Shown here piece after piece: positions 2,497 through 57,243 of a stretch of 64,000 nt of DNA. The position numbers were made by a program, and so were the translations under genes. The notes beneath the pieces are model-generated. The model was not told the origin of the DNA. It did not search any database and saw nothing but the letters and a program-made list of their open reading frames with translations. This DNA is from a virus. The DNA lies in the IMG/VR virus record IMGVR_UViG_3300003886_000002; one strand, 5' to 3'. How positions within the stretch are numbered: the first letter of the stretch is position 1; the number at the start of each line of letters is the position of its first letter.

Positions 2497-5400
2497 TCAT
2501 GTACCACAGCATGGGGGCTCTGCCTCATCTTGCACATCTGCAACCTCGGGGTTGATTGTCTCTACCCCATTATCGTTGCCGACGCGTCCCAAGATTGCAA
2601 AAAGACGTGACGCTGCACGTTCTGCACGGATAGGTCGCAGAGCCCCACGAAGCTCAACAATCTCTGCACGAAGCTCAGCCACGTCAGCCCCAAGTGATCC
2701 CACCTGGGGAAATGTGCGCTGCACCATACCTGCCGCGACAAGTGACCTCATTTCACCAGAACCTGAATCGTAGATACCCTGAGGGTTACGACCAGCAGAT
2801 GCAACCAAACTGTCTTGGACAATGAACCCTGAGAGGTTCACAGCCAACAGCCCAACCACCTCAAGGTTCTTCCTGATCCTACGCCAGTCAGGAGAGATAT
2901 CTGAGCCACGGAGCGCTTGCACCTGCTCCGGAGAAGCGCTAGGTCGAACCGCCCCAGCGGCAACAATTCCCCACGCATTCTCATACAGGTGAACGTCTGC
3001 TACAGCACACCCCGTATCTGCATAGTGCGCCTCAGCATCCGAAGCCAACAACCGCAGGTTGGGGTGAACCGTATCCATGTAGACAGGGCCACATAGCACC
3101 TGCTCGCCCTCATCAGTAACAACCCCGGGCTTATGGAATGCACTGAACCTGTTCTCTGTATGTGGGACACCCACACACTTATCGGAGAACCCGATATGGC
3201 AAGATCCCCACCGGGCAATCAACCCATAGCAGCGTCCATCTGCATATACCTGAAACTCCTCAGGCTCACCCATGTCGTCAAGTTCGAACCAAGAAGTAGG
3301 GGGATTCAAAGGAGGCGTCAAATTCTTGTTCCCTGCACTGGCGACAAGCGAATCAGGACTCACACGCTGCATGCGCTCTCCCTGCAAAGCGATAGGGACT
3401 GGTGATGTAAAGCGCCACACATCCCCACGCTCATACCCAGAGGCAACCAATGCTTCGTCATCAGATGCTATGTCTGCGTCAATCACGTGTACCTGTGCCT
3501 CTTGGAACGCTGGAAAAGGTGTAAGCGTGGCTCCCATGAGCCTGCCTTCTATGAGGACCTGTAGTATATCGTCATCAGAAAGCATCGCGTCAAGAGGGTC
3601 TACCTGACCGCCACTTGCGTCTTGGAACTCGATAGTTACCATGTCTATGTCTGCGGAAACTCCACGCATGGTACCTTCCGCTATGAGGCGGCGCGCTTCC
3701 TTCCCTTGCTCCCCAGAATCAAAGGAACCACGTCCTATGATCTCTTGGCCTACACGCTCAATCTCCTGTATAGACCCGGCGATAGCTGCACCATCGTGGC
3801 CCTCAGCGTTTACTGTCTGCAACATGAGGGGCAGTGGCAGCTTGCGCCACGTTAGGGTACCTTCGCTTATGAGGCGCCCATCACCAGAAACAACCCCTTC
3901 CACAATGAGTACCCCCTCCCATTCGAAGTCGCCGCTGACAACGTCCCCATCGATGATCGTATCGTCGCTAGACGTTGCGCTATCCCCATCTGTTCCATCT
4001 GGCTGAGAGTTCGGGCCGTCAACGATTTCATCGTCTCCTGCAAGCTCCTGTACGGAGTCGTCGCTCAACCCCAGTTCGGTTTCTAGTTCCTGTTGTTCCT
4101 GAGGGGTCAATGTTGACTGGCTCTGCTCAACCCATCGGTGAACAATTTCACCAATAAGTTCCCCGTCATTGAGTTCAGTAATATCGCGCTTGCCTGCAAG
4201 GTTCGCTACCTGTTCAAACCACTGAGCCCTCATGTCGCCTATAGCGCTTTCTACATCTGTGATGGGCTCGGCCTCACCTAGATCTGGGACGTTGACCCCT
4301 CCGTCGCGGAGGTGGCGGGCAAGGTGGTTAAAGACCCCTTGGTAATCGCTTGTTGGGATGGTGGAATCATCGATTACGGTAATGGCAGAATGGGCTGCCC
4401 ACATGACTGCTGCCCCAGGGTTGCCATCTTGGTCCACCACGTGGTGAATGAACTTGTATGCGGTCTTTGACCCGGCGGCTCTGTCCTCGTCTCGCCAAGC
4501 GAAGATACGTGCGTAGTAGCTTTGGTCTTCTCCCTGGCGGGTACGTTTCTTCGCCTCGTCACCGTTCCACCCTTCGAAGGTGGCAGGGTTGATCGTGGGG
4601 GTGCTATGGGATGCTAGTGGCCCAAACTCTGCCACTATTTCAGTGGCTGTTGTGTCAAAGTCTTCGTTGGGGTCTACAGGGTTGTTGATGTAGTAGAGAT
4701 CTACTAAGTCTGACATGTACCTATGGTCAGTAGGGTTAACAACTACCCCTTCTTCTACGGCCTGTGCGAGCAGTCCAGCATCTTGCAGCGACATCAGCTC
4801 AGGTGGTTCAAGGTCCGCATCGCTCAAATGGGATGCCAGGTGTTTGTAAACCCCTTCCCTGTCTCCACTCGGGATGGTTGTTCCCCCACGTGCCCCATTT
4901 AGGACACCGATGCCTGTAGACGCCGCGACTGTTGATGCATCCCCTGGGGTTCCGTCATCACCAACGAAGTGATGTATGAACCTGTAGGCGGCTTTCACAG
5001 TAGTGTCTGCCTCATCATCACGCCACGCGTAGATACGAGCGAAATAGTCCTCGTCGCTAGGGGACGTAACCTTCTTCTCGTTCTCCGGCCCATCCCAAGT
5101 GTCGACAGATGTAGGGGTGTCATGAGGGCTGATAGCAGCAAACGGTTCACTTCCGTCGTCCATCTCGTCTTCATCATCTGTCGTGTCTGTGCCCAAATCG
5201 GCAGCAATGCCACTCATGAATTCCAAGATGGCTGCCCACTGATCTTCCGTAACCGATGACGATTCTTCACCGTCAGGAGTATCCTCGCTTTCAACCAACT
5301 TATCCATAGCTTCCTGGGCGGACTCTACAGAATCGTGGCAGCTGATGACAGCCCCGGATTCTGGATCTACGAGTGCCACTGTTGATTCCCCATCGGTGCT

Positions 5401-6123
5401 CTCGACACAGTCAGCAGAGTCCTCAACAATGTCCAACCCCGCGGGGTCACCTACAAAGGTCTCCTGTGTACTACCTACTACGGTCTTTGCGGCCACGGTC
5501 AATTCCTCCTCAGTCGGCCCGGAAAGACCCACGTCAACGATTTCTGTACCCCAACGTAATGTGATGTTATCTAAATTCAATGGTAGACCAACTAGGTCCG
5601 CGCTGTCGGGAACTGGCCCATAGTTCAACGTAATATGTGGCTGGAAGTCGTGGTCTTGACGCACTGAGACGCCATTCTCGTTTAGCAGATGCACCAAATC
5701 GCTTCTGAACTCACCTAACCCAGGGGCATCTACCAACGCCAAAGTAATCCCATCAGTCCCGCTCTTCCCGAAAGATCCGATACCTGCTACTTCCCCATCG
5801 AAAGGGGAATAACGCTCTGCAACCCCAGCGATAACTGCCTCTACTGTTTCGCGATCCAACCCGTCACTGATAGCCCCCAGGGAAGCAAGAGTGACATGTA
5901 GAGATTCAGGCTGTTCCCCGCCTGACCGGGCCAACTCTTGTTTCTGGTCGTCTGTAGGCTCAACAGTAACGATGGCACTGTTGGAATGGTCAGCAAACGC
6001 CTGTGCGCGTTCCATCTTTGACGATAGAAGCACAAACAGGTTCTCAGGGAACTCCCCTACACTAACCAGCCCAGGGGTAGACACATCGGCAGAGCCACCG
6101 CTTATGGTAGTGATATCAGTCAT
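2497..6123 (-). CDS. Capsid maturation protease-like protein with N-terminal 2H phosphoesterase and a duplicated internal domain
   Basis: 1208 aa; HxT motifs LHVTLA and PHITLNY near the N-terminus; WEGVLIVEGVVSGDGR..LPLPL..GHDGA..RGVSAD..GATLTPFPAFQEA resembles actinophage head maturation proteases; lies directly downstream of the portal. Confidence 0.75.
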   Translation of the reverse strand: MTDITTISGGSADVSTPGLVSVGEFPENLFVLLSSKMERAQAFADHSNSAIVTVEPTDDQKQELARSGGEQPESLHVTLASLGAISDGLDRETVEAVIAGVAERYSPFDGEVAGIGSFGKSGTDGITLALVDAPGLGEFRSDLVHLLNENGVSVRQDHDFQPHITLNYGPVPDSADLVGLPLNLDNITLRWGTEIVDVGLSGPTEEELTVAAKTVVGSTQETFVGDPAGLDIVEDSADCVESTDGESTVALVDPESGAVISCHDSVESAQEAMDKLVESEDTPDGEESSSVTEDQWAAILEFMSGIAADLGTDTTDDEDEMDDGSEPFAAISPHDTPTSVDTWDGPENEKKVTSPSDEDYFARIYAWRDDEADTTVKAAYRFIHHFVGDDGTPGDASTVAASTGIGVLNGARGGTTIPSGDREGVYKHLASHLSDADLEPPELMSLQDAGLLAQAVEEGVVVNPTDHRYMSDLVDLYYINNPVDPNEDFDTTATEIVAEFGPLASHSTPTINPATFEGWNGDEAKKRTRQGEDQSYYARIFAWRDEDRAAGSKTAYKFIHHVVDQDGNPGAAVMWAAHSAITVIDDSTIPTSDYQGVFNHLARHLRDGGVNVPDLGEAEPITDVESAIGDMRAQWFEQVANLAGKRDITELNDGELIGEIVHRWVEQSQSTLTPQEQQELETELGLSDDSVQELAGDDEIVDGPNSQPDGTDGDSATSSDDTIIDGDVVSGDFEWEGVLIVEGVVSGDGRLISEGTLTWRKLPLPLMLQTVNAEGHDGAAIAGSIQEIERVGQEIIGRGSFDSGEQGKEARRLIAEGTMRGVSADIDMVTIEFQDASGGQVDPLDAMLSDDDILQVLIEGRLMGATLTPFPAFQEAQVHVIDADIASDDEALVASGYERGDVWRFTSPVPIALQGERMQRVSPDSLVASAGNKNLTPPLNPPTSWFELDDMGEPEEFQVYADGRCYGLIARWGSCHIGFSDKCVGVPHTENRFSAFHKPGVVTDEGEQVLCGPVYMDTVHPNLRLLASDAEAHYADTGCAVADVHLYENAWGIVAAGAVRPSASPEQVQALRGSDISPDWRRIRKNLEVVGLLAVNLSGFIVQDSLVASAGRNPQGIYDSGSGEMRSLVAAGMVQRTFPQVGSLGADVAELRAEIVELRGALRPIRAERAASRLFAILGRVGNDNGVETINPEVADVQDEAEPPCCGT

Positions 6124-20211: not shown

Positions 20212-20651
20212 GTTTGTTGTTTCTTGTGTTTGGCAGCATTTTTGAGACGGTTTTTTTGTACACGTTGTTTATGGCATTGTCTGCATTTGCGGGATGTGGT
20301 GCCGTTGGAGCGTTTATCTGTGTAGGCGTCATGGAGGCTGTGTCCGTGTTTGCAGTGTGTTTGCTGTGCTTTGCTGCCTCGTTGTATGTTTTCGCGGGTG
20401 GTGACGGCTTCCAAATGTCGGGGGTTGACGCATCTGGGGTTGCGGCACAGGTGGTCGATGGTGAGTTTGTCAGGTATGGGTCCTATGAACAGTTGGTAGG
20501 AGAGTCTGTGGGCGTACTGTTTTTTACCGTCAGGTCCTGTGGCGCGTCCGTACCCTGATTGGTTTGTGTATCCACCCCATTCCCAACAGTTGGGGCCTGT
20601 ACAGATTTTTGACATGAATTTCGTGACCCACGGCTGCCGTACCTCATCCAT
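20208..20651 (-). CDS. HNH endonuclease (HNH_3-like)
   Basis: CWEWGG...GYG...AHRLSY...DHLCRNPRCVNPRHLEAVT.REN; THCKHGH...CRQC. Confidence 0.93.
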   Translation of the reverse strand: MDEVRQPWVTKFMSKICTGPNCWEWGGYTNQSGYGRATGPDGKKQYAHRLSYQLFIGPIPDKLTIDHLCRNPRCVNPRHLEAVTTRENIQRGSKAQQTHCKHGHSLHDAYTDKRSNGTTSRKCRQCHKQRVQKNRLKNAAKHKKQQT

Positions 20652-22602: not shown

Positions 22603-22885
22603 CAACGTACGATTGTGGCGCCGCCAGAGATGGTGGCGCCACTGTCGCGCTCGGCCACGCGTCCACGCGTCGTATGTGGCCGTCTAAGCGTTCGCGATAC
22701 GTAGTATGATGCACTACAGCGCAACGTACGTAGCGACGCGTTAGGCGGCCATACGGCGCACAATGGTGGCAAGATGAGACGCGGGGCACTAGCTGACGCG
22801 TGCCACATACGGCCATCGTTCACCTCGACCATGCAACGCGAACCGTCGACCCCGGGAGTACTGGAACATACGTTCGGTCTAGGTG

Positions 22886-22997
22886 GATGGTTGGGTCCGA
22901 TGGTCGACCTGGATGGTCGAGCCCGATGGTCGAGGTGGATGGTCGAGCCCAATGGTCCGGCTGGACGGTCCGGGTGGATGATCTAGATGGATGGTCT
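22886..22997. repeat. Tandem repeat, 13-bp period, 9 units, core GATGGTC
   Basis: Cores at 22886, 22899, 22912, 22925, 22938, 22951, 22964, 22977 and 22990. Confidence 0.85.
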
Positions 22998-23001
22998 ATA
23001 T

Positions 23002-23757
23002 GGGTTACTGCCTCATAGATATAGCAACATTGCATTATCCAGTTCCTTATAGGAAAAGTTGTGTCTAAACCATATATATATGACCGTGTGTCTCTATAGA
23101 GGTCACTGCCTCACATGGACGGTATGGTGCGCGGCAGAGGCATGCTACAGGTGGCGGCACCGTCACTGCCGTAGAGGTCACTGCCTCACGGGGGTGCACC
23201 GTGCCCGTGAGTAGGTATGTCTAGAGGGTTTCCCCTGGACACTTGACAGTAACGTATACGGTGCCACAAGACTCTTGTGGACTACACCGGTGGTGACCGT
23301 TGGGAGGGGTCACTGCCTCACGCGGGGTGCCGTGGGTTCGCGGCCGTAAGAATGCTTGCCGCCGAGGCCTGCCACTATAGAGGGGCCGTGTACCATCACC
23401 TGTCTCTAGGGGGGCTGCCTCACGTGGAGAGGTCACTGCCTCCGCGGGTGCCGTGCAACACTCTAGACGTTACAGTTCCATAGTGTCAGGTGGGTTAGAG
23501 CGGTACAGGGAACTCTACTGGATACGAAACTCGTGCTGCTCACTGTGCTGTAACGGTTGACACTGTAACACCTGTAGGGGTTGCAGGCTCCTGTAGGGGC
23601 CGCTCCATAAATACACTTTAGGGGTTGACTACCCCACCATGCCGCGCGATAATGGTGGTGACTACAGAAAGGACACTACCCATGAAGATGTTATGGAACG
23701 GGGGCTACAGCTACTCCATAGACCCCGCGTCACTAGACCCCGTGAGGTCACTGCCTC
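23002..23757. repeat. Dispersed 14-bp repeat GAGGTCACTGCCTC
   Basis: Exact at 23099, 23174, 23429 and 23744; variants at 23002, 23306 and about 23160. Confidence 0.85.
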
Positions 23758-24215: not shown

Positions 24216-24446
24216 ATGCTCCCGTTCCCACCTACCCGCGGCACCCTCGCTATGGCGGCCGCCATACTAGCGGCCCGCGGCGGAGACATACCCTGTACGC
24301 AAGCGTGGCTACATGATCTAGCCGATACGCTGGAAGATAGGGCCATACTCCATAGCGCCGTAGGGGACATGACCACAGGGGACAGACAGGCGAACCTAGC
24401 TCACATAGCCCGAGTAGCCGCAATGTGGATACCCTCATTCAACTGA
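24216..24446 (+). CDS. Hypothetical protein
   Basis: 76 aa, GAGGA RBS. Confidence 0.55.
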   Translation: MLPFPPTRGTLAMAAAILAARGGDIPCTQAWLHDLADTLEDRAILHSAVGDMTTGDRQANLAHIARVAAMWIPSFN

Positions 24447-24503
24447 GCCGGAGACCTACAACATTCACCTAGGTGCTGCGCTCAACATTGCTCAGGAGCG
24501 ACA

Positions 24504-24549
24504 ACGACAAAAGGCCAGAGCTGCGGTAATAGCTCTGGCCTTTTGTCGT
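24504..24549 (+). terminator. Perfect 19-bp hairpin terminator
   Basis: ACGACAAAAGGCCAGAGCT-8nt-AGCTCTGGCCTTTTGTCGT. Confidence 0.85.
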
Positions 24550-24680
24550 GGGATGGGTTGCGGGCGCTTCAGGACTCGCGGCGGGCCTCAACCTGTCCAT
24601 ATGGGCCGCCGCGCGCGGAAGGGCCATTGTGCCTATGCACTCAACTTGACATGCTCGCGCGGGGCTGATACCTTAGCACT

Positions 24681-24805
24681 TGTCAGCAGGTGGGCGGGAA
24701 ACCGCAGCTTGTATCCACCCCGCACCGAGCGCACCATGTCATGTGGGTAAGTCGAGCACGAACGGCCACGGCACTACGGCACACGGAAGCGCCCACCTGC
24801 TGACA
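24681..24805 (+). ncRNA. Candidate structured ncRNA-1 (about 125 nt)
   Basis: TTGACA-17-TACCTT promoter directly upstream; 16-bp perfect terminal stem 24681-24696/24790-24805; no RBS-ORF. Confidence 0.65.
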
Positions 24806-24992
24806 CCTAAGCCCCCACCGAACGGGGAGCGCCCAGGCGTTCCAGTCCAGATGACCGGGACCGTCCGTTTAGATGGTCGAGCGCCGCCCGCTGCCGCTAG
24901 GTCGAGCCCCACCACGCGGCCCCTCAGGGGTGTACACGTGCCCGTACGCGAAGAAAGGGCGCTCCCCTGCGCCCCTCCCTCTCTGTTGAGCC

Positions 24993-25133
24993 TCAGCCCT
25001 CGCGGGCCTCTGTGATGGCTGCACGGCGAGTGCTGGCCTTGCGGGCCTTCGCCTCAGCCTTGCGGGCCTTGCTACCCCACTCGGTCATTCCGGGGGTGGC
25101 CTTGCGAACTGAGGTGCTCGTGGGACTCTGCAT
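24993..25133 (-). CDS. Small basic protein (46 aa)
   Basis: MQSPTSTSVRKATPGMTEWGSKARKAEAKARKASTRR...; AGGAG RBS behind a cassette promoter. Confidence 0.65.
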   Translation of the reverse strand: MQSPTSTSVRKATPGMTEWGSKARKAEAKARKASTRRAAITEAREG

Positions 25134-25154
25134 GATCGTTGCTCCTGATCGGTG

Positions 25155-25253
25155 GTTGCTGACAAGGGAAGTATCTCACACTATCGCGCGCCCGGCAAGG
25201 GTTTTGTTTACCAAACACGCGCTAACAACCGCGAGCGAACACGTGTTCCAGTC
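25155..25253 (-). promoter_or_regulatory. Class I cassette promoter repeat with overlapping ACTGGA/SOS box
   Basis: Near-identical to 27572-27670 and 29287-29378; reads GACTGGAAC-N4-GTTCG...TTG(A/C)C.-17-(-10)-GTCAGCAAC on the minus strand. Confidence 0.85.
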
Positions 25254-25447
25254 CCGGGGGTTGCGCGGCGGCGCCTCTAGTGGGGTGTATCACCTCTCCA
25301 TGCCCTGGCAGGGGCCTACGTGCTGCCACACGTGCACTACACCGGCCTAGTTGGTCGGCTGCGCTTGAGTTGATACACCCCTCTAGAGGCACCCCCGGGA
25401 GGGGCCTAGGTTTCTGTTGCCACCCCCTAGGCGGGGCCGAGTCTTAG

Positions 25448-25576
25448 TCAGTTGGAGTACTCTACGAGCACGGCGCCGCCGCGGGCCTCCACCCATTCTG
25501 CGGCTCTGTCCTCTGCCGCTGAGGTCTTGCGAACCTTGCGGGCCTTCTGTCGCTCTGTGAGCTGACGCTTAGTCAT
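25448..25576 (-). CDS. Small basic protein (42 aa)
   Basis: MTKRQLTERQKARKVRKT...; TACTAT-6-GTCAG start and AAGGGGG RBS. Confidence 0.6.
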   Translation of the reverse strand: MTKRQLTERQKARKVRKTSAAEDRAAEWVEARGGAVLVEYSN

Positions 25577-25832
25577 TCGTTCACCCCCTTGGGACTTGCT
25601 GACATGATGATAGTACCCTACTGGCATGTCGAAAGGCGCGCGAGGGTATTACGGTTGCGTTACAGCATAAATGGAACGAACGTTACATAAATGCTACGCA
25701 TCCAGTCCCGCCCGATGCTGCACGGTGCACCATTGGATCGTAATGAGTCGAACGGCCTATAGTTACGGCTTGCACTGCTAGCCGCTAGCCCCTATAGTGA
25801 TTCATGTCAGCAACCTACCCACAGGAGACCCC

Positions 25833-26365: not shown

Positions 26366-26842
26366 CTACCGTGCGATAGGTGGAAGTATCCTAGGGTCGA
26401 CCACCTGCAAGACAGGTAGCCCTATCTCCCGCCACATATCTACCACTTGTTGCCGGTCGTCAACAACGTAGCGGACATCATAGAACGGGGCTATCTGCTC
26501 ACGGTATATCTCTTCTTTCACCACCGAGTCTCTACGTTGGTCACCACCTTTACGCATGATGAGCACGTCAATAGGTAGGGCGTGCTTACGTAGCCACGCG
26601 GTCATCAATAAGCGGCGGTGAGTGTCCCCTACATGGTCTCCCGCCGCACGGCCGCTTGTCATTATGCGCACCACCCCGGGCCGGATAGAACGCAACAGAG
26701 CCGCCACTACAGGTACAGGGGCATCAAAGGGTAGAGCTGCGTTGTATTGCCGCCACGCGCTACCCGAGCGGTCAAGCGGCGCAATGTACGCGACACTAGC
26801 AAGAGTGCCATCACGATCGAAAATAACGGCAGGGGGTCTCAT
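26366..26842 (-). CDS. HAD phosphatase resembling the T4 PNK 3'-phosphatase domain
   Basis: IFDRDGTLA, TSGR, MRKGGDQRRDSVVKEE, DDRQQVVDMWREIGLPVLQV. Confidence 0.9.
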   Translation of the reverse strand: MRPPAVIFDRDGTLASVAYIAPLDRSGSAWRQYNAALPFDAPVPVVAALLRSIRPGVVRIMTSGRAAGDHVGDTHRRLLMTAWLRKHALPIDVLIMRKGGDQRRDSVVKEEIYREQIAPFYDVRYVVDDRQQVVDMWREIGLPVLQVVDPRILPPIAR

Positions 26843-27552
26843 TGGGCTAGCGTAGCGCTCAACCTGAGCCCATCACGAAAGATATGCAAACGCGTCAGAG
26901 CCGGAATGTCGGCCATTAGGTCAAGTGTACCTAACGTGTTGTGAACCATCATACGCTCGACCTCATCGCGTACACGTTCTGCACTCACTAGCCCCAGCAT
27001 GCGGGCCGCATCACGGCTGCATAGCGCATCCCAAGTATCGACCGTAGGCTCTAGGCCCTTGGTTATGCAGAAGCGCAACCCGCGTAGCACGCGTAGCCCG
27101 TCCTCTGCTATGCGCTCCGAAGGATTACCAACGAACCTGAGCACCCCGTTACGGAGGTCGTCTTGACCGCCGTGAGGGTCGATAAGGTCCCCCGTGAGAG
27201 GGTCGCGAGCCATAGCGTTCACGGTGAAATCTCGGCGTGCCAGATCATCGGCTAGCGTGCCGGGCTCCACAAAATCAGGGCGGCGACCGTCGCTACCGGC
27301 GGAATCTTTACGCGCCAGCACAAAATCTGCATCCCGAGTACGTTCCCGCAACACGTGCCCTTTCGGCACCCCTGCGCGGATAGTGACAAACTCAGGATGT
27401 TCCACGTGCAACACGAAACCCTCGGCGACAAGGTGTGAGCGCATGGCTTGGAACGAGGGAGCGATAACGGCAAAGTCGATATCCTTTGTAGGGATACCCA
27501 TGAGGTCATCGCGTACGCACCCCCCTACCTCAAACATTTTGATGTCTGCCAT
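26839..27552 (-). CDS. tRNA nucleotidyltransferase (class II CCA-adding enzyme), short form
   Basis: VGGCVRD, KDIDF, DLARRDFTVNAMA, EDGLRVLRGLRF, VSAERVRDE. Confidence 0.93.
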   Translation of the reverse strand: MADIKMFEVGGCVRDDLMGIPTKDIDFAVIAPSFQAMRSHLVAEGFVLHVEHPEFVTIRAGVPKGHVLRERTRDADFVLARKDSAGSDGRRPDFVEPGTLADDLARRDFTVNAMARDPLTGDLIDPHGGQDDLRNGVLRFVGNPSERIAEDGLRVLRGLRFCITKGLEPTVDTWDALCSRDAARMLGLVSAERVRDEVERMMVHNTLGTLDLMADIPALTRLHIFRDGLRLSATLAQ

Positions 27553-27571
27553 GATCCCCTCCGGGCCGTTG

Positions 27572-27670
27572 GTTGCTGACAGAAAAAGTATACAGCACTA
27601 TCGCGCGTCCGTCAAGGGTTTTGTTTACCAAACACGCGCTAACAGCCGCGAGCGAACACGTGTTCCAGTC
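27572..27670 (-). promoter_or_regulatory. Class I promoter repeat with SOS-like box upstream of the CCA/phosphatase operon
   Basis: TTGACG-17-TATACT-6-GTCAGCAAC; CGAACACGTGTTCC at 27653-27666. Confidence 0.85.
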
Positions 27671-29054: not shown

Positions 29055-29288
29055 CGAATCGGGCCGGGCCATCGGGTCGCCTACCATCCCCGCATCGGTG
29101 CACCTCCGCGGTTACTCTCGGCTACCGTCTAGCCCGTTCTCCCCGTTCGCTCACCTACTTGGCACATCCATCCACTACCCTTCATTCAGGGATCGCCTAC
29201 CATTCCCAGGTAGGACGTGATCGTTAGCCGTCAGGGGTAGTTTCATATGGCGTGCTTGATGGCACCTCGGGGGTCCCGATTCGTTTAC
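29055..29288 (-). ncRNA. Candidate ncRNA-3 (about 230 nt)
   Basis: TTGACG-17-GAGGCT class I promoter; terminal stem CGAATCGGG/CCCGATTCG; two hairpins sharing the loop ATGGTAGGCGA. Confidence 0.65.
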
Positions 29289-29456
29289 AAGGAAAGCCTC
29301 TCACATTATCGCGCGGCCGTCAAGTGTTTTGTTTACCAAACACGCGCTAACCGCCGCGAGCGAACGTGTGTTCCAGTCACCGCAACTGTGGGGGCCTTCC
29401 AGTCCTTGTGGGTGACGCGCGTGTGAGGCCGACCGTTAGGTCGACCTCACTAGCGT

Positions 29457-29876: not shown

Positions 29877-30113
29877 ATGCGCACATGGAGACAGACATAC
29901 GCCATGGTAGCTCTACTCGCCCTAGTGGCCCTAGTGCTCACATGGAGAACGGGGTACGATGCCGGGAAAGGTAGCCACCCTACCGACATACCTGTAGAGC
30001 GAACCATTCCAAGCGAACCATCCTGTACCCTATATGAGGATGGCAGCACCTACTGTAACAGTAGCGGCGCCGATGGTTCGGCTTGCATCATACCCGAATG
30101 GGGGTGCCTATAG
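29877..30113 (+). CDS. Membrane-anchored Cys-rich protein, paralog of 34282-34500
   Basis: N-terminal TM helix; CTLYEDGS.YCNS...DGS.CII.EWGCL shared. Confidence 0.75.
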   Translation: MRTWRQTYAMVALLALVALVLTWRTGYDAGKGSHPTDIPVERTIPSEPSCTLYEDGSTYCNSSGADGSACIIPEWGCL

Positions 30114-30785
30114 ACCATCGGGTCCGACCATCCACCCGAACCATCGGACCCCGGGGGGTACTGGAACACGTGTTCGGTCGGATCGGACCATCGGGTCGGA
30201 CCGTCGGATCGGATGATCGGATTTGATGGTATAGGTGATTTGTGCTGATTAGAGACTCTGTATCTAATCATATGTTTGTACCTGATTATAGATACAGTAT
30301 CTAATGAGATCTAACGTATCTAACAAGGGGGGACGCGTCACATGGAAGCGCTAGAGCGGAGCGGCAGAGGCGTAGCCGCGTGTCCCAACGGTAGCGCGAA
30401 GGGCGTCCAAACTGTAGCGTGGCTACACGGTTACATGCCGCCCGGGTGCTGCCCTGCCACTAGGCAAAGCGTGTTAGATGCCCCTGGCCGCTATGTCTCA
30501 TATGTCATACGGTGCACGCTAGACATATGGCAGACGGCCCCTGTCCCCGCATGAAACTACCGACGGCACCCGTAGAGGCAACAAACCCAACCCTACCCTT
30601 GGGGACAGTGGCCGCCTAGAGCCACCTACAGAGGCCACCTGAGGGCACCCGCGGGCTACAGGGGACAGCAGCGACAGTAGCGGCAACGGTACAGGTGGGG
30701 GCGGCGTCACGGCAAAACAGACGTGTGCCCCGTAGGGTGCGCGGAGCATGCCACGCTACCCTACAGGGCACACACCACAGGGAGT

Positions 30786-32773: not shown

Positions 32774-32864
32774 ACCTCCTGATAGATGTTTGCTGACAAA
32801 GAAAGTCTCTCACACTATCGCGCGGCCGTCAAGCGTTTTGTTTACCAAGCACACAGATAGATAC
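32774..32864 (-). repeat. 91-bp perfect direct repeat (promoter plus RBS), second copy 34115-34205
   Basis: Identical by base-by-base comparison. Confidence 0.9.
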
Positions 32865-32943
32865 TCCAGTCCCGGGGCGCCGACACGGGCCGGAGAGTGG
32901 ATGGGTCTCCGGCCCGCGGGGTCAGCGATCTGTACCCGGGGGG

Positions 32944-33366: not shown

Positions 33367-33511
33367 CTCGTGCTCCTCTCGGTTGCTGACAAGGGAAGTC
33401 TCCCACGTCCGCGCGAGCATGTCAAGAGGTTTCTCAAATTCCCCCCCAACCCGAACGGGCATCCAGTCCTGTAGGGCCGGTGGGGATGATGGTCCATCCC
33501 CACCATGTGGG

Positions 33512-34108: not shown

Positions 34109-34281
34109 TATTGAACCTCCTGATAGATGTTTGCTGACAAAGAAAGTCTCTCACACTATCGCGCGGCCGTCAAGCGTTTTGTTTACCAAGCACACAGATA
34201 GATACAAACATTTGGGCTTGACTTCTGCGATGAGACGCGCGAGACTTGATGTGTCAGATACAACTATTGCCGGAGGTACCT

Positions 34282-34929: not shown

Positions 34930-35108
34930 GATTACCCCTCCTGTAGTTGACTATCTGACACTCACATCATCCCACGCCCGCGCGAACATGTCAAGCCCCA
35001 ACCCCCCAACCCCACAGCCCCCACTATGGCATCCAGTGAAACGTCTTGACGTAAAGGAGCCCTGACCCATACAGGCCAGGGCTCCGTCTGATGTGACCGT
35101 GGGGGAGG

Positions 35109-45579: not shown

Positions 45580-45945
45580 CTACAGTAGCCCTCCTGTGTT
45601 GTGAACCCACCGTTCGATCTCCCGCACTGAGGCACGAGTCGGCGGGGCAGCATGTCGCATCGAAGTACAATCAGGGCAATACTCGTCGCCATTCTTCCCC
45701 TGCACCATATGCGAGTTATCACAGGTGTCGCACTCCCCCACCATCGCGTTCCCCACGATGGTGCGGCTGGCGCTTTCGATCGCTTGCGACAGGCTCCTGA
45801 CTAGGGTGTGCGCGTCTGGGACAGACATGACTCCCAAGTCGATCCGGTTACTCTCACCAGACCCGACAGGCGAAAGCGATGCTTCGACTCTGATTAGATG
45901 ATGCGCCGCTGTGACACAAATCGTGACTATCTCCTTGTCGTTCAT
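45580..45945 (-). CDS. Hypothetical protein with CxxC...CPDC
   Basis: ATGA-coupled to the upstream LbH protein. Confidence 0.65.
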   Translation of the reverse strand: MNDKEIVTICVTAAHHLIRVEASLSPVGSGESNRIDLGVMSVPDAHTLVRSLSQAIESASRTIVGNAMVGECDTCDNSHMVQGKNGDEYCPDCTSMRHAAPPTRASVREIERWVHNTGGLL

Positions 45946-46910
45946 ATCGTTTCTCCTGCCGCGATGTCCCCGGTCACATGTGCGTCACCGAGCACCCGGG
46001 CGTCGCCGTGCACCCAAGCACTACTGAACACCCGAGCGTTGCCGGACACCCGGGCGCCACCGTACACCAGCGCGTTGTCGTACACCTGAGCGTTGCCGGA
46101 CACCTGAGCGTTGCCGAACACCTTGGCGTTTCCGTGCACCGCAGCGTCGCCAAACACCCGGGCATCACCGTACACCCGAGCGTTGCCGAACACCTGAGCG
46201 TTGCCGAACACCCAAGTATCACCGAGCACCCGGGCGTCGCCGTGCACCCAAGCACTACTGAACACCCAAGCGTTGCCAAACACCTGAGCGTCAGGGCCGA
46301 TTGCCGCAGTGCCAGCCACTGTGGCGCTGTCCGCGACCCACCCACCCTCAGACTCATCAGGGTTGACGTGACGGCGCGCCGCCACCGGACCTTCACCGAA
46401 GTCATGCATGACAACGTTTCGATATGTGGATGCCCGCAGCTGTGCTAGACATCCCTGTAGAACCCCGGCCATCTCCGCGATCGACGCGTATGCATTTCGC
46501 ATCTTCTTTACGTCGCCTCCGGCTACAAGCTCATCTACAAGTTCGCTCACCACATCTGGAGATACGATCATACGGATTGCTTCCGCTGTCTCGTCTGTGG
46601 CGAACCATGCTGTCTCGCCGTCCACAAGGGGCCGTTCTCGACTGAATGCCGCTACCGCTGTGCGTATGTTGCCTACGGTTATGTCACTCGGCCCGATAGG
46701 GGTTGAATCGTGGTCATACGGCATCCACCCGTCCGTGCATCCGGCGAACGGTGCGAGTGCTGCCTGTAGACATTCGATCTTTGTAGCTGCGTCACGGAGC
46801 AGCGCTGCGTTTGCCCGCAGATCCAGAGCGCTAGTGCCTACGGCCGTTCTGGCCTGTGTGATTATCCCGTGGGCCTTGAGGTGTAGCCGTTCGATCAGGT
46901 TGTCGTTCAT
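45942..46910 (-). CDS. Protein with C-terminal left-handed beta-helix hexapeptide repeats
   Basis: HDFGEGPV..RHVNPD.SEGGWVAD followed by (G N/D A Q/R/W V F/Y/H)n repeats. Confidence 0.85.
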   Translation of the reverse strand: MNDNLIERLHLKAHGIITQARTAVGTSALDLRANAALLRDAATKIECLQAALAPFAGCTDGWMPYDHDSTPIGPSDITVGNIRTAVAAFSRERPLVDGETAWFATDETAEAIRMIVSPDVVSELVDELVAGGDVKKMRNAYASIAEMAGVLQGCLAQLRASTYRNVVMHDFGEGPVAARRHVNPDESEGGWVADSATVAGTAAIGPDAQVFGNAWVFSSAWVHGDARVLGDTWVFGNAQVFGNARVYGDARVFGDAAVHGNAKVFGNAQVSGNAQVYDNALVYGGARVSGNARVFSSAWVHGDARVLGDAHVTGDIAAGETI

Positions 46911-47042
46911 GGGGTCTCCTTAGGTAGGGGATTCTCAACAGAGAGGATACTAGCAGGTGGGGGTGACAGCACATCGGCTTCTTCCTGTCACCCCCACCTG
47001 CTATAGTCCCCCCCGTCAGGTAGTCAACTAAAGGAGCAGACG

Positions 47043-50253: not shown

Positions 50254-50431
50254 GTGGTTCTCCTTTGGTTGTAGACCTGCTGACATGTCTGATGGTAGCA
50301 CATAGGGGTGTCACCATCAGGCTTCGGGTGGACGCACCGCAACCCGCCCGGCGTATACGCAGCACACTCGGTCTGCGCCCTTCCGGTCACGGTGTAGGGA
50401 CCCTTGGCGGGTGTAGTCACATGGCTCTGCC

Positions 50432-51490
50432 CTACCACTTTCCTTCGTTACGCCATGAGGGGAAGAACCCCTCAACAGGTCCACACACCCGATCGTCACC
50501 GTACACCCGGGCGTCACCGTACACTCCGGCGTCACCGAACACCTGGGCGGTGCCGGACACCCAAGCGCTGTCGAGCACCTGGGCGTTCCCAAACACCCGG
50601 GCATCGTCAAGCACCTGGGCGTCACCGCCTATTTGTGCGCTCTCGTACACCCGGGCGTCACCGGACACCCGGGCGTCACCGGACACCCGAGCGTTGCCGT
50701 ACACCCGAACATGATCAAACACCTGGGCGTTGTCGAACACCCGAGCGTCACCGAACACCCGAGCGTTACCGTACACCTGAGCGTCGCCAGACACCCGGGC
50801 GTCACCGGACACCCGAGCGTTGCCGTACACCCGAACATGATCAAACACCTGGGCGTTGTACCCGATATGTGCAGTAGCCGCCACCCAAGCAGTATCCGCC
50901 ACCCAACCACCCTCGGGGCCGTCAGGGGTGACGTGACGGTGGGCCGCCACCGGACCTTCACCGAAATCGTGCATCTGTGGTGCCGATTCGACATCACCGT
51001 CCCCGTACACTTCTGGCGTGACATGCTGGAAGAAGATCGTGAGAACGTCCCGGCTGTGGTCGTCGCCGTCGTCGTACATGGTGGTGGTGACTTCTTGCAC
51101 GATGTCGGGGTCAATCGGGATGATCCCCACGACCTGCTCGGCGTAGCCGCCGTAGCTGACAGAAATGTAGTCCTGGTGCCCATTCCATATGTAGGAGAAC
51201 AGGTTCTCGCGGTCGTAGTAGGCCAGATGGGCACAACCGTCGCGGTTCTGTACTGCCTCCTGGGCTACGTCAGGATGAAGGATGTGGATGTGTCGTGGAG
51301 CCACGAATCCTTCGGTGCAGATGCAGCTGGGCACCTCAACTCCTGTGCGACTGTTGACGTACGCACCGATACTTGTGACTATCTCCACAATGCGCTCACC
51401 GTTGCTGTCCGGCTTCTCAACAACAACGGTCCTGTCGCTTGTAACCCCTGTGGCAGAGACTCGGGCATCATCACTGTTGATTGTTCGCAT
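50432..51490 (-). CDS. Protein with C-terminal LbH hexapeptide repeats (second copy of the module)
   Basis: Same HDFGEGPVAAHRHV.PDG.EGGWVAD module; TTGACG-16-TAGTGT-GTCAG promoter. Confidence 0.85.
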   Translation of the reverse strand: MRTINSDDARVSATGVTSDRTVVVEKPDSNGERIVEIVTSIGAYVNSRTGVEVPSCICTEGFVAPRHIHILHPDVAQEAVQNRDGCAHLAYYDRENLFSYIWNGHQDYISVSYGGYAEQVVGIIPIDPDIVQEVTTTMYDDGDDHSRDVLTIFFQHVTPEVYGDGDVESAPQMHDFGEGPVAAHRHVTPDGPEGGWVADTAWVAATAHIGYNAQVFDHVRVYGNARVSGDARVSGDAQVYGNARVFGDARVFDNAQVFDHVRVYGNARVSGDARVSGDARVYESAQIGGDAQVLDDARVFGNAQVLDSAWVSGTAQVFGDAGVYGDARVYGDDRVCGPVEGFFPSWRNEGKW

Positions 51491-55885: not shown

Positions 55886-56337
55886 ATAGCTGGTGTTTGC
55901 CTGGTTTTGTGGGGTTTTGGGTCTTTTTTTTGTTTGTGGAGCCTGTTTTGGTTGCCACAGGGGGTATGGTTGGGGTATTGTTGTTTGTTTGTGCTGGTGG
56001 GGGGGTGTTTTTGTGTCCCCCGACCCCTGTGACGTTACCTACCACAGTGACACCCCCCAAAGGGTTCTGCCCCTATAGGGGAAACCGTGTGTCCATGTGA
56101 CCTCAGGAGACATGTGACGCATGTGTCTAGATGGGTGTGGAAGTGTCGACGGGTGTCGTGTCTGGTCGTCTCCCCCTCCCCGGGCCGATAGTACCCCATG
56201 GGGGTGCCACGTGTGGCGGCTGGTGGACCCCCACTCCCCCGCCCGGACAACGTTACAGCAGCCGTACGTCAACGGGTGTCACCCCCTGCCGCTACAATAC
56301 CCCACCACAACAAGACACAACCCGGACGGACAACCCA

Positions 56338-57243
56338 ATGAACTCAACCCCCCAACACATATGGCGCCTCGTGTACAAAGAAACAGGAGCCCCCTCCAGC
56401 TGCTGCACCACTCTAGAAGACGCACAGGACAGACTCGCAGTAGACTCCCGCCCACACCTATTCACAATACGACGCTGGGACATCAACACCCAACAGTGGG
56501 TAGACGCACCCAAACGTTCATGGGAGTTAACGGACCACGATTCCCCATCCCCCACCCGCCACGATAATACCCCAGGTGATGAACAAATCATGATTTGTGT
56601 CACCCACGACATCGACCTGCACATCACAACCCCTGACCCCCCACCCCCCGAAACGTGCGGCGAAACAACAGAACCCACAGAAAAACTGGCCGAAGAAACA
56701 CTAACCCAAATGGAAACCGACGCCCGAATGTGGGCAGACGAATACATGGCACAATTCCCAAACGCCACCCCTGACATCAGGTCACTAACGGCCTGGTTCA
56801 CCAACACTATCGAAGCCACACGTACAGCAGACCAAGCATGCAACAACAGGAGCACCCCACCTGTACACGACTTCGGTGAAGGACAGGTGCATGCCCACCG
56901 CCACATCAACCCCGGTGGGACCGAGGGCGGTTGGGTCGCGGACACCGCGAATGTGGCCGACACAGCGACAATCGGCCCCAACGCCCAAATATCTGACAAC
57001 GCCCGGGTATTCGACCACGCACAGGTGCTGGGTGACGCTCAAGTGTACTGCAACGCTCAGGTGTACAACAACGCTACGGTAGACGGCAGCGCTTGGGTGT
57101 CCGGCAACGCCCGGGTGTTTGGAGACGCTCGGGTGTACGACAGTGCTGTGGTGTACGGAAACGCACAAGTGTTCGGCGACGCCCGGATATGCAAGAATGC
57201 ACATGTAATCGGTAACGTCGCGACAGGAGAAACCACAACATGA
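56338..57243 (+). CDS. Protein with C-terminal LbH hexapeptide repeats (third copy of the module)
   Basis: HDFGEGQVHAHRHINPGGTEGGWVAD; GTGTCACCCCC...TACAAT promoter at 56276. Confidence 0.8.
   Translation: MNSTPQHIWRLVYKETGAPSSCCTTLEDAQDRLAVDSRPHLFTIRRWDINTQQWVDAPKRSWELTDHDSPSPTRHDNTPGDEQIMICVTHDIDLHITTPDPPPPETCGETTEPTEKLAEETLTQMETDARMWADEYMAQFPNATPDIRSLTAWFTNTIEATRTADQACNNRSTPPVHDFGEGQVHAHRHINPGGTEGGWVADTANVADTATIGPNAQISDNARVFDHAQVLGDAQVYCNAQVYNNATVDGSAWVSGNARVFGDARVYDSAVVYGNAQVFGDARICKNAHVIGNVATGETTT

Follow-up and report, generated by a model that had tools for sequence, protein, structure and literature searches.

What is made from the promoter at 24646, a copy of a promoter that this phage places before many of its small genes, when no gene of its own follows? 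The DNA analysed here (64,000 nucleotides, referred to as the window) comes from a large phage, of which it covers 64 kb, and its G+C content is 52-64%. A Pfam scan of 124 open reading frames (ORFs) of the window detected a DnaB helicase, SSB, a PD-(D/E)XK nuclease, DNA methylases and ArdA, as well as a PNKP-type phosphatase, a CCA-adding enzyme and a capsid-protease/MuF fusion with a LigT-like domain. The nearest proteins found by tblastn belong to phages of Actinobacteria, with only 31-52% identity; the source is an uncultured phage of the actinobacterial type. The fusion protein (2497-6123, minus strand) has 1208 residues; its C-terminal third is similar to actinophage capsid maturation protease/MuF proteins, and its N-terminus carries the LigT-like 2H phosphoesterase domain. 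Another feature of the window is a DNA repeat with an 18-nt period, present within two leftward genes (45930-46373 and 50405-50956) whose products are YdcK-type beta-solenoid proteins; a third protein of this type is encoded at 56131-57243.

The region that precedes the predicted transcript contains the following elements:

24504-24549, both strands: bidirectional intrinsic terminator; its perfect stem of 19 bp encloses a loop of 8 nt, and the hairpin is flanked by an A-run on the left and a T-run on the right
24646-24651, plus strand: -35 hexamer TTGACA of a promoter family member
24666-24674, plus strand: extended -10 element, TGa-TACCTT, 17 nt past the -35
24681-24686, plus strand: TGTCAG box, conserved in the promoter family, six nt past the -10

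The strong upstream terminator reported in the initial annotation was recovered as the hairpin at 24504-24549, whose stability on the minus strand is -32.9 kcal/mol and which closes a rightward gene block. Likewise, the promoter was correctly read as TTGACA-17-TACCTT followed by GTCAG; the -10 hexamer occupies 24669-24674 and is preceded by a TG at 24666-24667. Approximately 22 copies of this promoter are distributed between 24646 and 53211 on both strands of the window, each ending in the conserved TGTCAG box. The pattern TTGAC-N30-36-GTCAG occurs 19 times in the window against 1.2 expected, and TTGTCAGC occurs 11 times against 2.1 expected; a 12-nt match, TGTATCCACCCC, at 20567 falls within an ORF of the minus strand and is no more than expected by chance. 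When the family is defined by TTGAC(A/G), a spacer of 16-17 nt, a -10 of the form nAnnnT, and the TGTCAG box 5-6 nt later, the sequence at 24646-24686 is a member, and both its -35 and its box are perfect. Its -10 and box are separated by 6 nt, i.e., one base more than the 5 nt seen in the other copies with a 17-nt spacer. Two subfamilies can be distinguished by their spacers, one containing CGCGCG and the other TGTCACCCCC. These data support the view that 24646-24674 is a genuine copy of the repeated, host-type (sigma-A-like) promoter of this phage, from which transcription is very likely. Since the box is located 6-8 nt past the -10, where transcription should start, the start is predicted from this spacing at T24681 or, more likely, at G24682. 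Given that the TGTCAG(CA) box lies at the predicted start in all cassettes, the cassette mRNAs would share their first 6-8 bases.

The statement that no ribosome-binding site and ORF follow this promoter was examined against the whole family. A loose scan (at least four of six -35 positions, a -10 of the form nAnnnT, and at most one mismatch in the box) gave 31 matches, and in 22 of them a Shine-Dalgarno sequence and a start codon are found 13-22 nt after the box. The copy with its box at 24681 has none, in agreement with the initial reading. It is one of nine matches without a gene, and the sole one among these that combines a perfect -35 with a perfect box; the other eight are imperfect in a hexamer or in the box, and several of them are located within or next to ORFs that are not part of the cassette region. 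Every other good copy is followed, within 13-22 nt, by a Shine-Dalgarno sequence with its start codon. The promoter-cassette system of this phage is very regular and provides its own internal contrast, with about 21 promoters that have genes and one that does not.

Open frames are present in the region, and a small protein could in principle be encoded by a 111-aa ORF (24680-25015), a 37-aa ORF (24690-24803) or a 20-aa ORF (24740-24802). Nevertheless, the eight ORFs tested across 24553-25024 on both strands all have negative codon scores (-0.04 to -0.23 bits per codon), as compared with a mean of +0.25 for the 33 training genes and +0.19 and +0.21 for two small neighbouring genes. These frames also lack a Shine-Dalgarno site, as well as Pfam matches and homologues; in particular, the 111-aa ORF gave no Pfam match and no homologue in a large protein collection. 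This ORF would start at the TTG of the box that is common to every cassette leader, and the other leaders continue from this point to a separate gene led by its own Shine-Dalgarno sequence. A protein product is therefore extremely unlikely, and the non-coding reading of the 24681 transcript is well supported.

The most prominent feature of the predicted transcript is that its beginning is complementary to a sequence located 109 nucleotides downstream. Its parts are:

24681-24696, plus strand: 5' arm of the closing helix, TGTCAGCAGGTGGGCG, with pair probabilities of ~1.0 for the 11 central pairs
24697-24789, plus strand: interior of 93 nt, C/A-rich (T 12%) and poorly structured
24707-24718 / 24743-24757, plus strand: weak inner stem within the 93-nt interior
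24790-24805, plus strand: CGCCCACCTGCTGACA, the 3' arm of this helix, with CC-U after it

The perfect pairing of the first 16 nt with 24790-24805 that had been proposed was verified: the two arms are complementary at 16 of 16 positions by Watson-Crick pairs, with no G-U pair and 93 nt between them. The helix is also kept in the fold of a 310-nt context. It is not a random occurrence, since perfect 16-mer inverted repeats with arms 20-300 nt apart exist in three places of the window and in none of 40 dinucleotide shuffles; the other two places are divergent promoter pairs, i.e., duplicated promoter sequence. The repeat ends sharply at 16 bp, and local alignment of its flanks revealed no further similarity either outward (p 0.83) or inward (p 0.93), and the idea that the promoter was duplicated in inverted form over a longer stretch was rejected. 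Because the outer edge of the helix falls on the base at which the transcript is predicted to begin, a role at the RNA level is favoured; this position fits such a role better than a blind duplication of DNA would, and it is the best single argument that the sequence offers. If transcription begins at G24682, A-C-C followed by U (24805-24808) remains as a 3' overhang of the helix. This overhang resembles the acceptor end of a tRNA minus the final A, which may be a coincidence.

Folding of the 125-nt RNA gave -52.4 kcal/mol with a z-score of -2.30 for the plus strand; however, the complementary strand folds better (z -3.57). The strand cannot be assigned from folding for this reason, and the choice of the plus strand rests on the promoter. 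An inner stem had been described in the initial annotation, and its two pairings, GCUUG/CGAGC and UAUCCAC/GUGGGUA, do appear in the minimum-energy fold; their pairing probabilities, in contrast, are just 0.65 and 0.20. A folded interior was not borne out either, since the 93-nt loop taken by itself on the plus strand folds worse than 198 of 200 shuffled sequences (z +2.21). On the minus strand the interior is no better than its shuffles (z +0.40). The loop was also compared by a duplex search with the 61-nt translation-start regions of the window ORFs, and no convincing target was detected in them; the best duplex reached -66.7 kcal/mol, while for shuffled loops the mean was -59.9 and the lowest value -67.8 kcal/mol.

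The main competing explanation is that the locus is an empty cassette: the promoter would have been left over from recombination among near-identical copies, its transcript would be a by-product devoid of function, and the inverted repeat would be a young accident. The first 18 nt of the promoter, CTTGACATGCTCGCGCGG, are identical (18/18) to those of the promoter at 33409-33426 and nearly so (18/19) to 34977-34995, and the remainder is unique; since the left half is shared with other copies and the right half is not, the promoter may be a chimera. A precedent for this kind of event is found in T4-type phages, in which PeSL motifs were reported to mediate the shuffling of promoter/stem-loop cassettes (PMC2839356, PMC4122927). 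The system described in these reports is similar to the one found here in having many small early genes behind near-identical promoters with terminators between them, an architecture that favours shuffling and could leave units without a gene. It differs in that PeSL, as described there, is a terminator plus promoter motif of Gram-negative myoviruses, and in that it accounts for a cassette system, not for an RNA product. In favour of this explanation, the other two 16-mer inverted repeats of the window are duplicated promoter sequence, the interior is unstructured, and the helix is perfect and without G-U pairs, as would result from a recent event in the DNA, although the absence of G-U pairs fits a young or DNA-level repeat and an RNA helix equally well. 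On the other hand, the repeat includes 8 nt (GGTGGGCG) that no other copy of the promoter carries, and it does not run into the promoter sequence but has its first base precisely where transcription is predicted to start. No promoter accompanies the 3' arm, given that none was seen by eye on the minus strand in 24806-24850, and an accidental perfect repeat of 16 bp is not expected by chance, as none appeared in the 40 shuffles. Taking both sides together, we consider a leftover promoter with an accidental repeat unlikely, albeit worth keeping in mind.

The same repeat could act as DNA, with its two inverted 16-bp copies, one of them over the start site, bound by a protein as a paired operator with looping, or forming a cruciform. 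The perfect Watson-Crick complementarity is compatible with this role, as is the fact that both strands fold equally well by the helix; furthermore, the left arm overlaps the TGTCAG box common to all the promoters, and the motif AGCAGGTGGG is also found as a pair in inverted orientation at 46952/46993, where two promoters diverge. Nevertheless, AGCAGGTGGG is not enriched in the window (7 matches versus 6.6 expected), the distance of 109 bp from centre to centre corresponds to ~10.4 helical turns, which places the two sites out of phase, and no candidate for the binding protein was identified. A role as a DNA site is accordingly regarded as distinctly improbable.

The 3' end of the transcript has to be considered together with the sequence that follows the helix, where the elements are:

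24806-24956, plus strand: non-coding tail with a weak hairpin at 24836-24865, then the U-poor tail CGUUUAGAU
24957-24974, both strands: hairpin GGGCGC-6-GCGCCC, with a UUUCUUC tail on the minus strand and a C/U-mixed tail on the plus strand
24993-25133, minus strand: convergent gene for a 46-aa basic protein, with a positive codon score and a family promoter at 25159-25198

No intrinsic terminator was found 3' of the helix on the plus strand; the hairpins at 24836-24865 and 24957-24974 are the only ones present, and both lack a U-run. The second of these hairpins, with its U-tail on the minus strand, is the terminator of the leftward 46-aa gene, and on the plus strand it would be a weak stop at best. 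The tail also contains an 11-bp long-range repeat (24824-24834 / 24957-24967). A discrete size of 125 nt was part of the initial description of this RNA, but this length is unsupported because no terminator follows the helix; the product could be ~125 nt if it is trimmed to the helix, ~190 nt, ~295 nt, or a longer antisense RNA.

A longer product raises the possibility that rightward transcription lowers the expression of the 46-aa gene, either by antisense pairing or by collision of polymerases, in which case the 5' helix would be just a stabiliser. The two units are convergent and ~480 bp apart, no strong plus-strand terminator lies between them, and the hairpin at 24957-24974 has no U-run on the plus strand. 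However, this hairpin may still halt part of the plus-strand transcripts, such a role has no need of a 3' arm placed to match exactly 16 nt, and a counter-promoter of this kind is seen in no other cassette of the window. Regulation of the convergent gene thus seems rather unlikely to be the function of this unit.

The neighbourhood on this side shows other repeated elements. A family of 112-nt repeats, 67-87% identical, is found at 25142-25253, 27559-27670, 29267-29378, 32776-32887 and 34117-34228, and each repeat comprises a leftward promoter together with the ~60 nt upstream of it, which are conserved. An inverted repeat of 31 nt (25266-25296 / 25367-25397), 87% complementary and with its arms 70 nt apart, is situated where two leftward cassettes are separated by 250 nt of non-coding DNA, and is possibly another structured element. 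Two leftward genes encode small and very basic proteins, the one of 46 aa at 24993-25133 and another of 42-59 aa at 25448-25627. Their Lys/Arg/Ala-rich tails are alike (ARKA..RKAS..RRAA..EAREG versus ARKV.RKTSAAEDRAAEWVEARGG), and from this similarity the two proteins are probably paralogues.

On the other side of the RNA, six copies of GGTCACTGCCTC are present on the same strand between 23003 and 23757, five of them exact and one with 1 mismatch. Five copies are within a gene-poor stretch of 0.9 kb right after the replication genes, and the sixth (23746) is within the next gene; this stretch may be an origin or a control region. Arrays of a unit with a 13-nt period (GATGGTC plus 6 variable bases) were detected at 22876-23005 and at 30113-30221, in opposite orientation, ~7 kb apart and both in non-coding DNA. 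These arrays look like protein-binding iterons, and a lone GATGGTC at 24872 is not significant by itself. Given this setting, a promoter-driven non-coding RNA beside a repeat-rich region could be a replication primer, i.e., the RNA of an origin. Two repeat families are contained in 0.9 kb of non-coding DNA located 1-2 kb upstream, with replication genes just before it, and a precedent exists in the cluster A mycobacteriophages that carry parABS, for which RNA-based prophage origins, with a non-coding RNA for prophage replication, have been reported (PMC7157519). Nevertheless, the cases described in that report adjoin parABS, which is absent here; a C-rich RNA disfavours a persistent RNA-DNA hybrid, and three small genes and the strong terminator separate the RNA from the repeat region. 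A primer function is for these reasons very unlikely.

The family to which this RNA might belong was not recognised in the initial annotation, and comparison with Rfam agrees with this. At the gathering score no match was obtained in the whole window; at E values up to 10, the region 24400-25200 gave nine chance-level matches, none of them relevant, and the best low-scoring one (ar35, 28 bits versus a cut-off of 45 bits) falls on the upstream terminator, off the RNA. ARAGORN predicted 0 tRNA or tmRNA genes in the window, which discards these two identities. A retron msr-msd was also rejected; the RNA does have an inverted repeat, but none of the 124 ORFs contains a reverse-transcriptase domain. 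Likewise, a bacterial sRNA bounded by a terminator does not apply, given that there is no intrinsic terminator at the 3' end.

Two structural analogies had been put forward, an RNA polymerase decoy and a Y-RNA-like RNA, and neither was upheld as an identity by the searches, which gave no Rfam match to 6S or Y RNA, no Y RNA motif and no Ro60 gene. The 6S RNA has ~150-200 nt and consists of a central bubble and a terminal stem, and 6S and Ms1 are decoys that bind RNA polymerase. The RNA described here is similar to them in that a helix closes it while its central region is open, and a decoy of this kind would be of plausible use to a phage that switches transcription programmes. It is, in contrast, much shorter (~125 nt), and has no terminal stem-loop opposite a defined bubble; identity with 6S RNA was rejected, as none of the Rfam 6S models matched at E values up to 10 and the interior has no stable terminal stem.

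The Y RNA and YrlA families are small RNAs whose 5' and 3' ends are paired in a long helix around a looser interior, and some of their members are encoded by mycobacteriophages, as reported by Chen et al. 2014 (PMC4201824). The likeness extends to the genes nearby, which here are of the RNA-repair type (the PNKP-like phosphatase and the CCA-adding enzyme, 26366-27552). A regular-expression search of 24681-24990 for the Y RNA motifs taken from that report, GNCGAAN0-1G and GGUCCGA, gave no match. The tRNA-like T-arm and D-arm of YrlA are absent, with no T-loop motif and no ARAGORN match, and no TROVE/Ro60 gene was found by Pfam among the 124 window ORFs. With no motif, T- or D-arm, Rfam match or TROVE gene in the 64-kb window, identity with Y RNA or YrlA was rejected.

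Relatives of the RNA were searched for by several approaches. No match was obtained by blastn (distant mode) in 50,697 phage records, including to the right-end region of the cluster A phages L5 and D29. The exact 16-mer is present at 17 loci of IMG/VR, none of them alike beyond 16-19 nt, and the stem pattern with a free interior gave there a single, unrelated coding match. The promoter pattern yielded 11 single matches in IMG/VR and 91 in GTDB contigs, which is the chance level. The neighbourhoods of 80 relatives of the CCA enzyme in IMG/VR showed no similarity and no promoter motif, and two flanking proteins and DnaB have no relatives in the same collection. Among 401 genomes of Actinomycetes, nine GC-rich matches of 22-48 nt were found, all outside the RNA, one of them in the unpublished genome G009. 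Finally, metagenome loci reached through the CCA enzyme (3 of 64 parts; best match 54% identical) include none that resembles the RNA region.

From the evidence above, the best single explanation, which we favour tentatively and with somewhat less than even confidence, is that the promoter at 24646 produces a stable and functional early non-coding RNA closed by a stem. The transcript would begin at ~24681-24682, and its first 16 bases would pair with 24790-24805 to close the C/A-rich loop of 93 nt. Since this helix would bury the 5' end, conferring resistance to RNases that depend on it, and would halt 3' exonucleases, the RNA would be likely to accumulate early as a stable species whose length is ~125 nt or a little more. 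In such an RNA, the working part would be the open loop, which would act as a decoy or sponge, probably by binding a factor of the host or of the phage.

A further elaboration takes into account that the genes for the CCA-adding enzyme and the PNKP-type phosphatase lie 2 kb from the RNA. In this conjecture, which is bold and rather doubtful, the helix of 15-16 bp would seal the ends, the A-CC tail would mimic a tRNA acceptor, and the RNA would act together with the two phage enzymes, while the 93-nt loop, under selection to stay single-stranded, would titrate an RNA-binding defence or repair factor of the host, or RNA polymerase. The two genes form one leftward cassette (26366-27552, minus strand), in a 64-kb window without a tRNA gene.

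The closest working analogy for a stable early RNA of this kind is provided by the mycobacteriophages L5, D29 and StarStuff, in which abundant and stable small non-coding RNAs are produced straight from the early promoter Pleft (PMC5712189); both are cases of an early host-type promoter of an actinophage whose immediate product has no ORF. According to that report, a transcript of ~500 nt, which mostly ends at a defined region, is processed to species of 100-400 nt, and these RNAs, whose function is unknown, are toxic for the host (PMC5712189). The Pleft RNAs are located at the genome end and were demonstrated by RNA-seq and Northern blots (PMC5712189), whereas the candidate described here is predicted from sequence alone and is defined by a 16-bp helix that joins the 5' end to a downstream segment; the two have no sequence similarity by blastn.

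Phage non-coding RNAs transcribed from early promoters are already known from L5 and D29, and the functions of almost all of them are unknown. The main value of the present RNA is that of a catalogued candidate, a single-sequence prediction in an uncultured phage. Nevertheless, it is a clean case, with one promoter, one helix, an open loop and no gene, and it would make an easy construct for tests of stability, toxicity and partners in a model actinobacterium.
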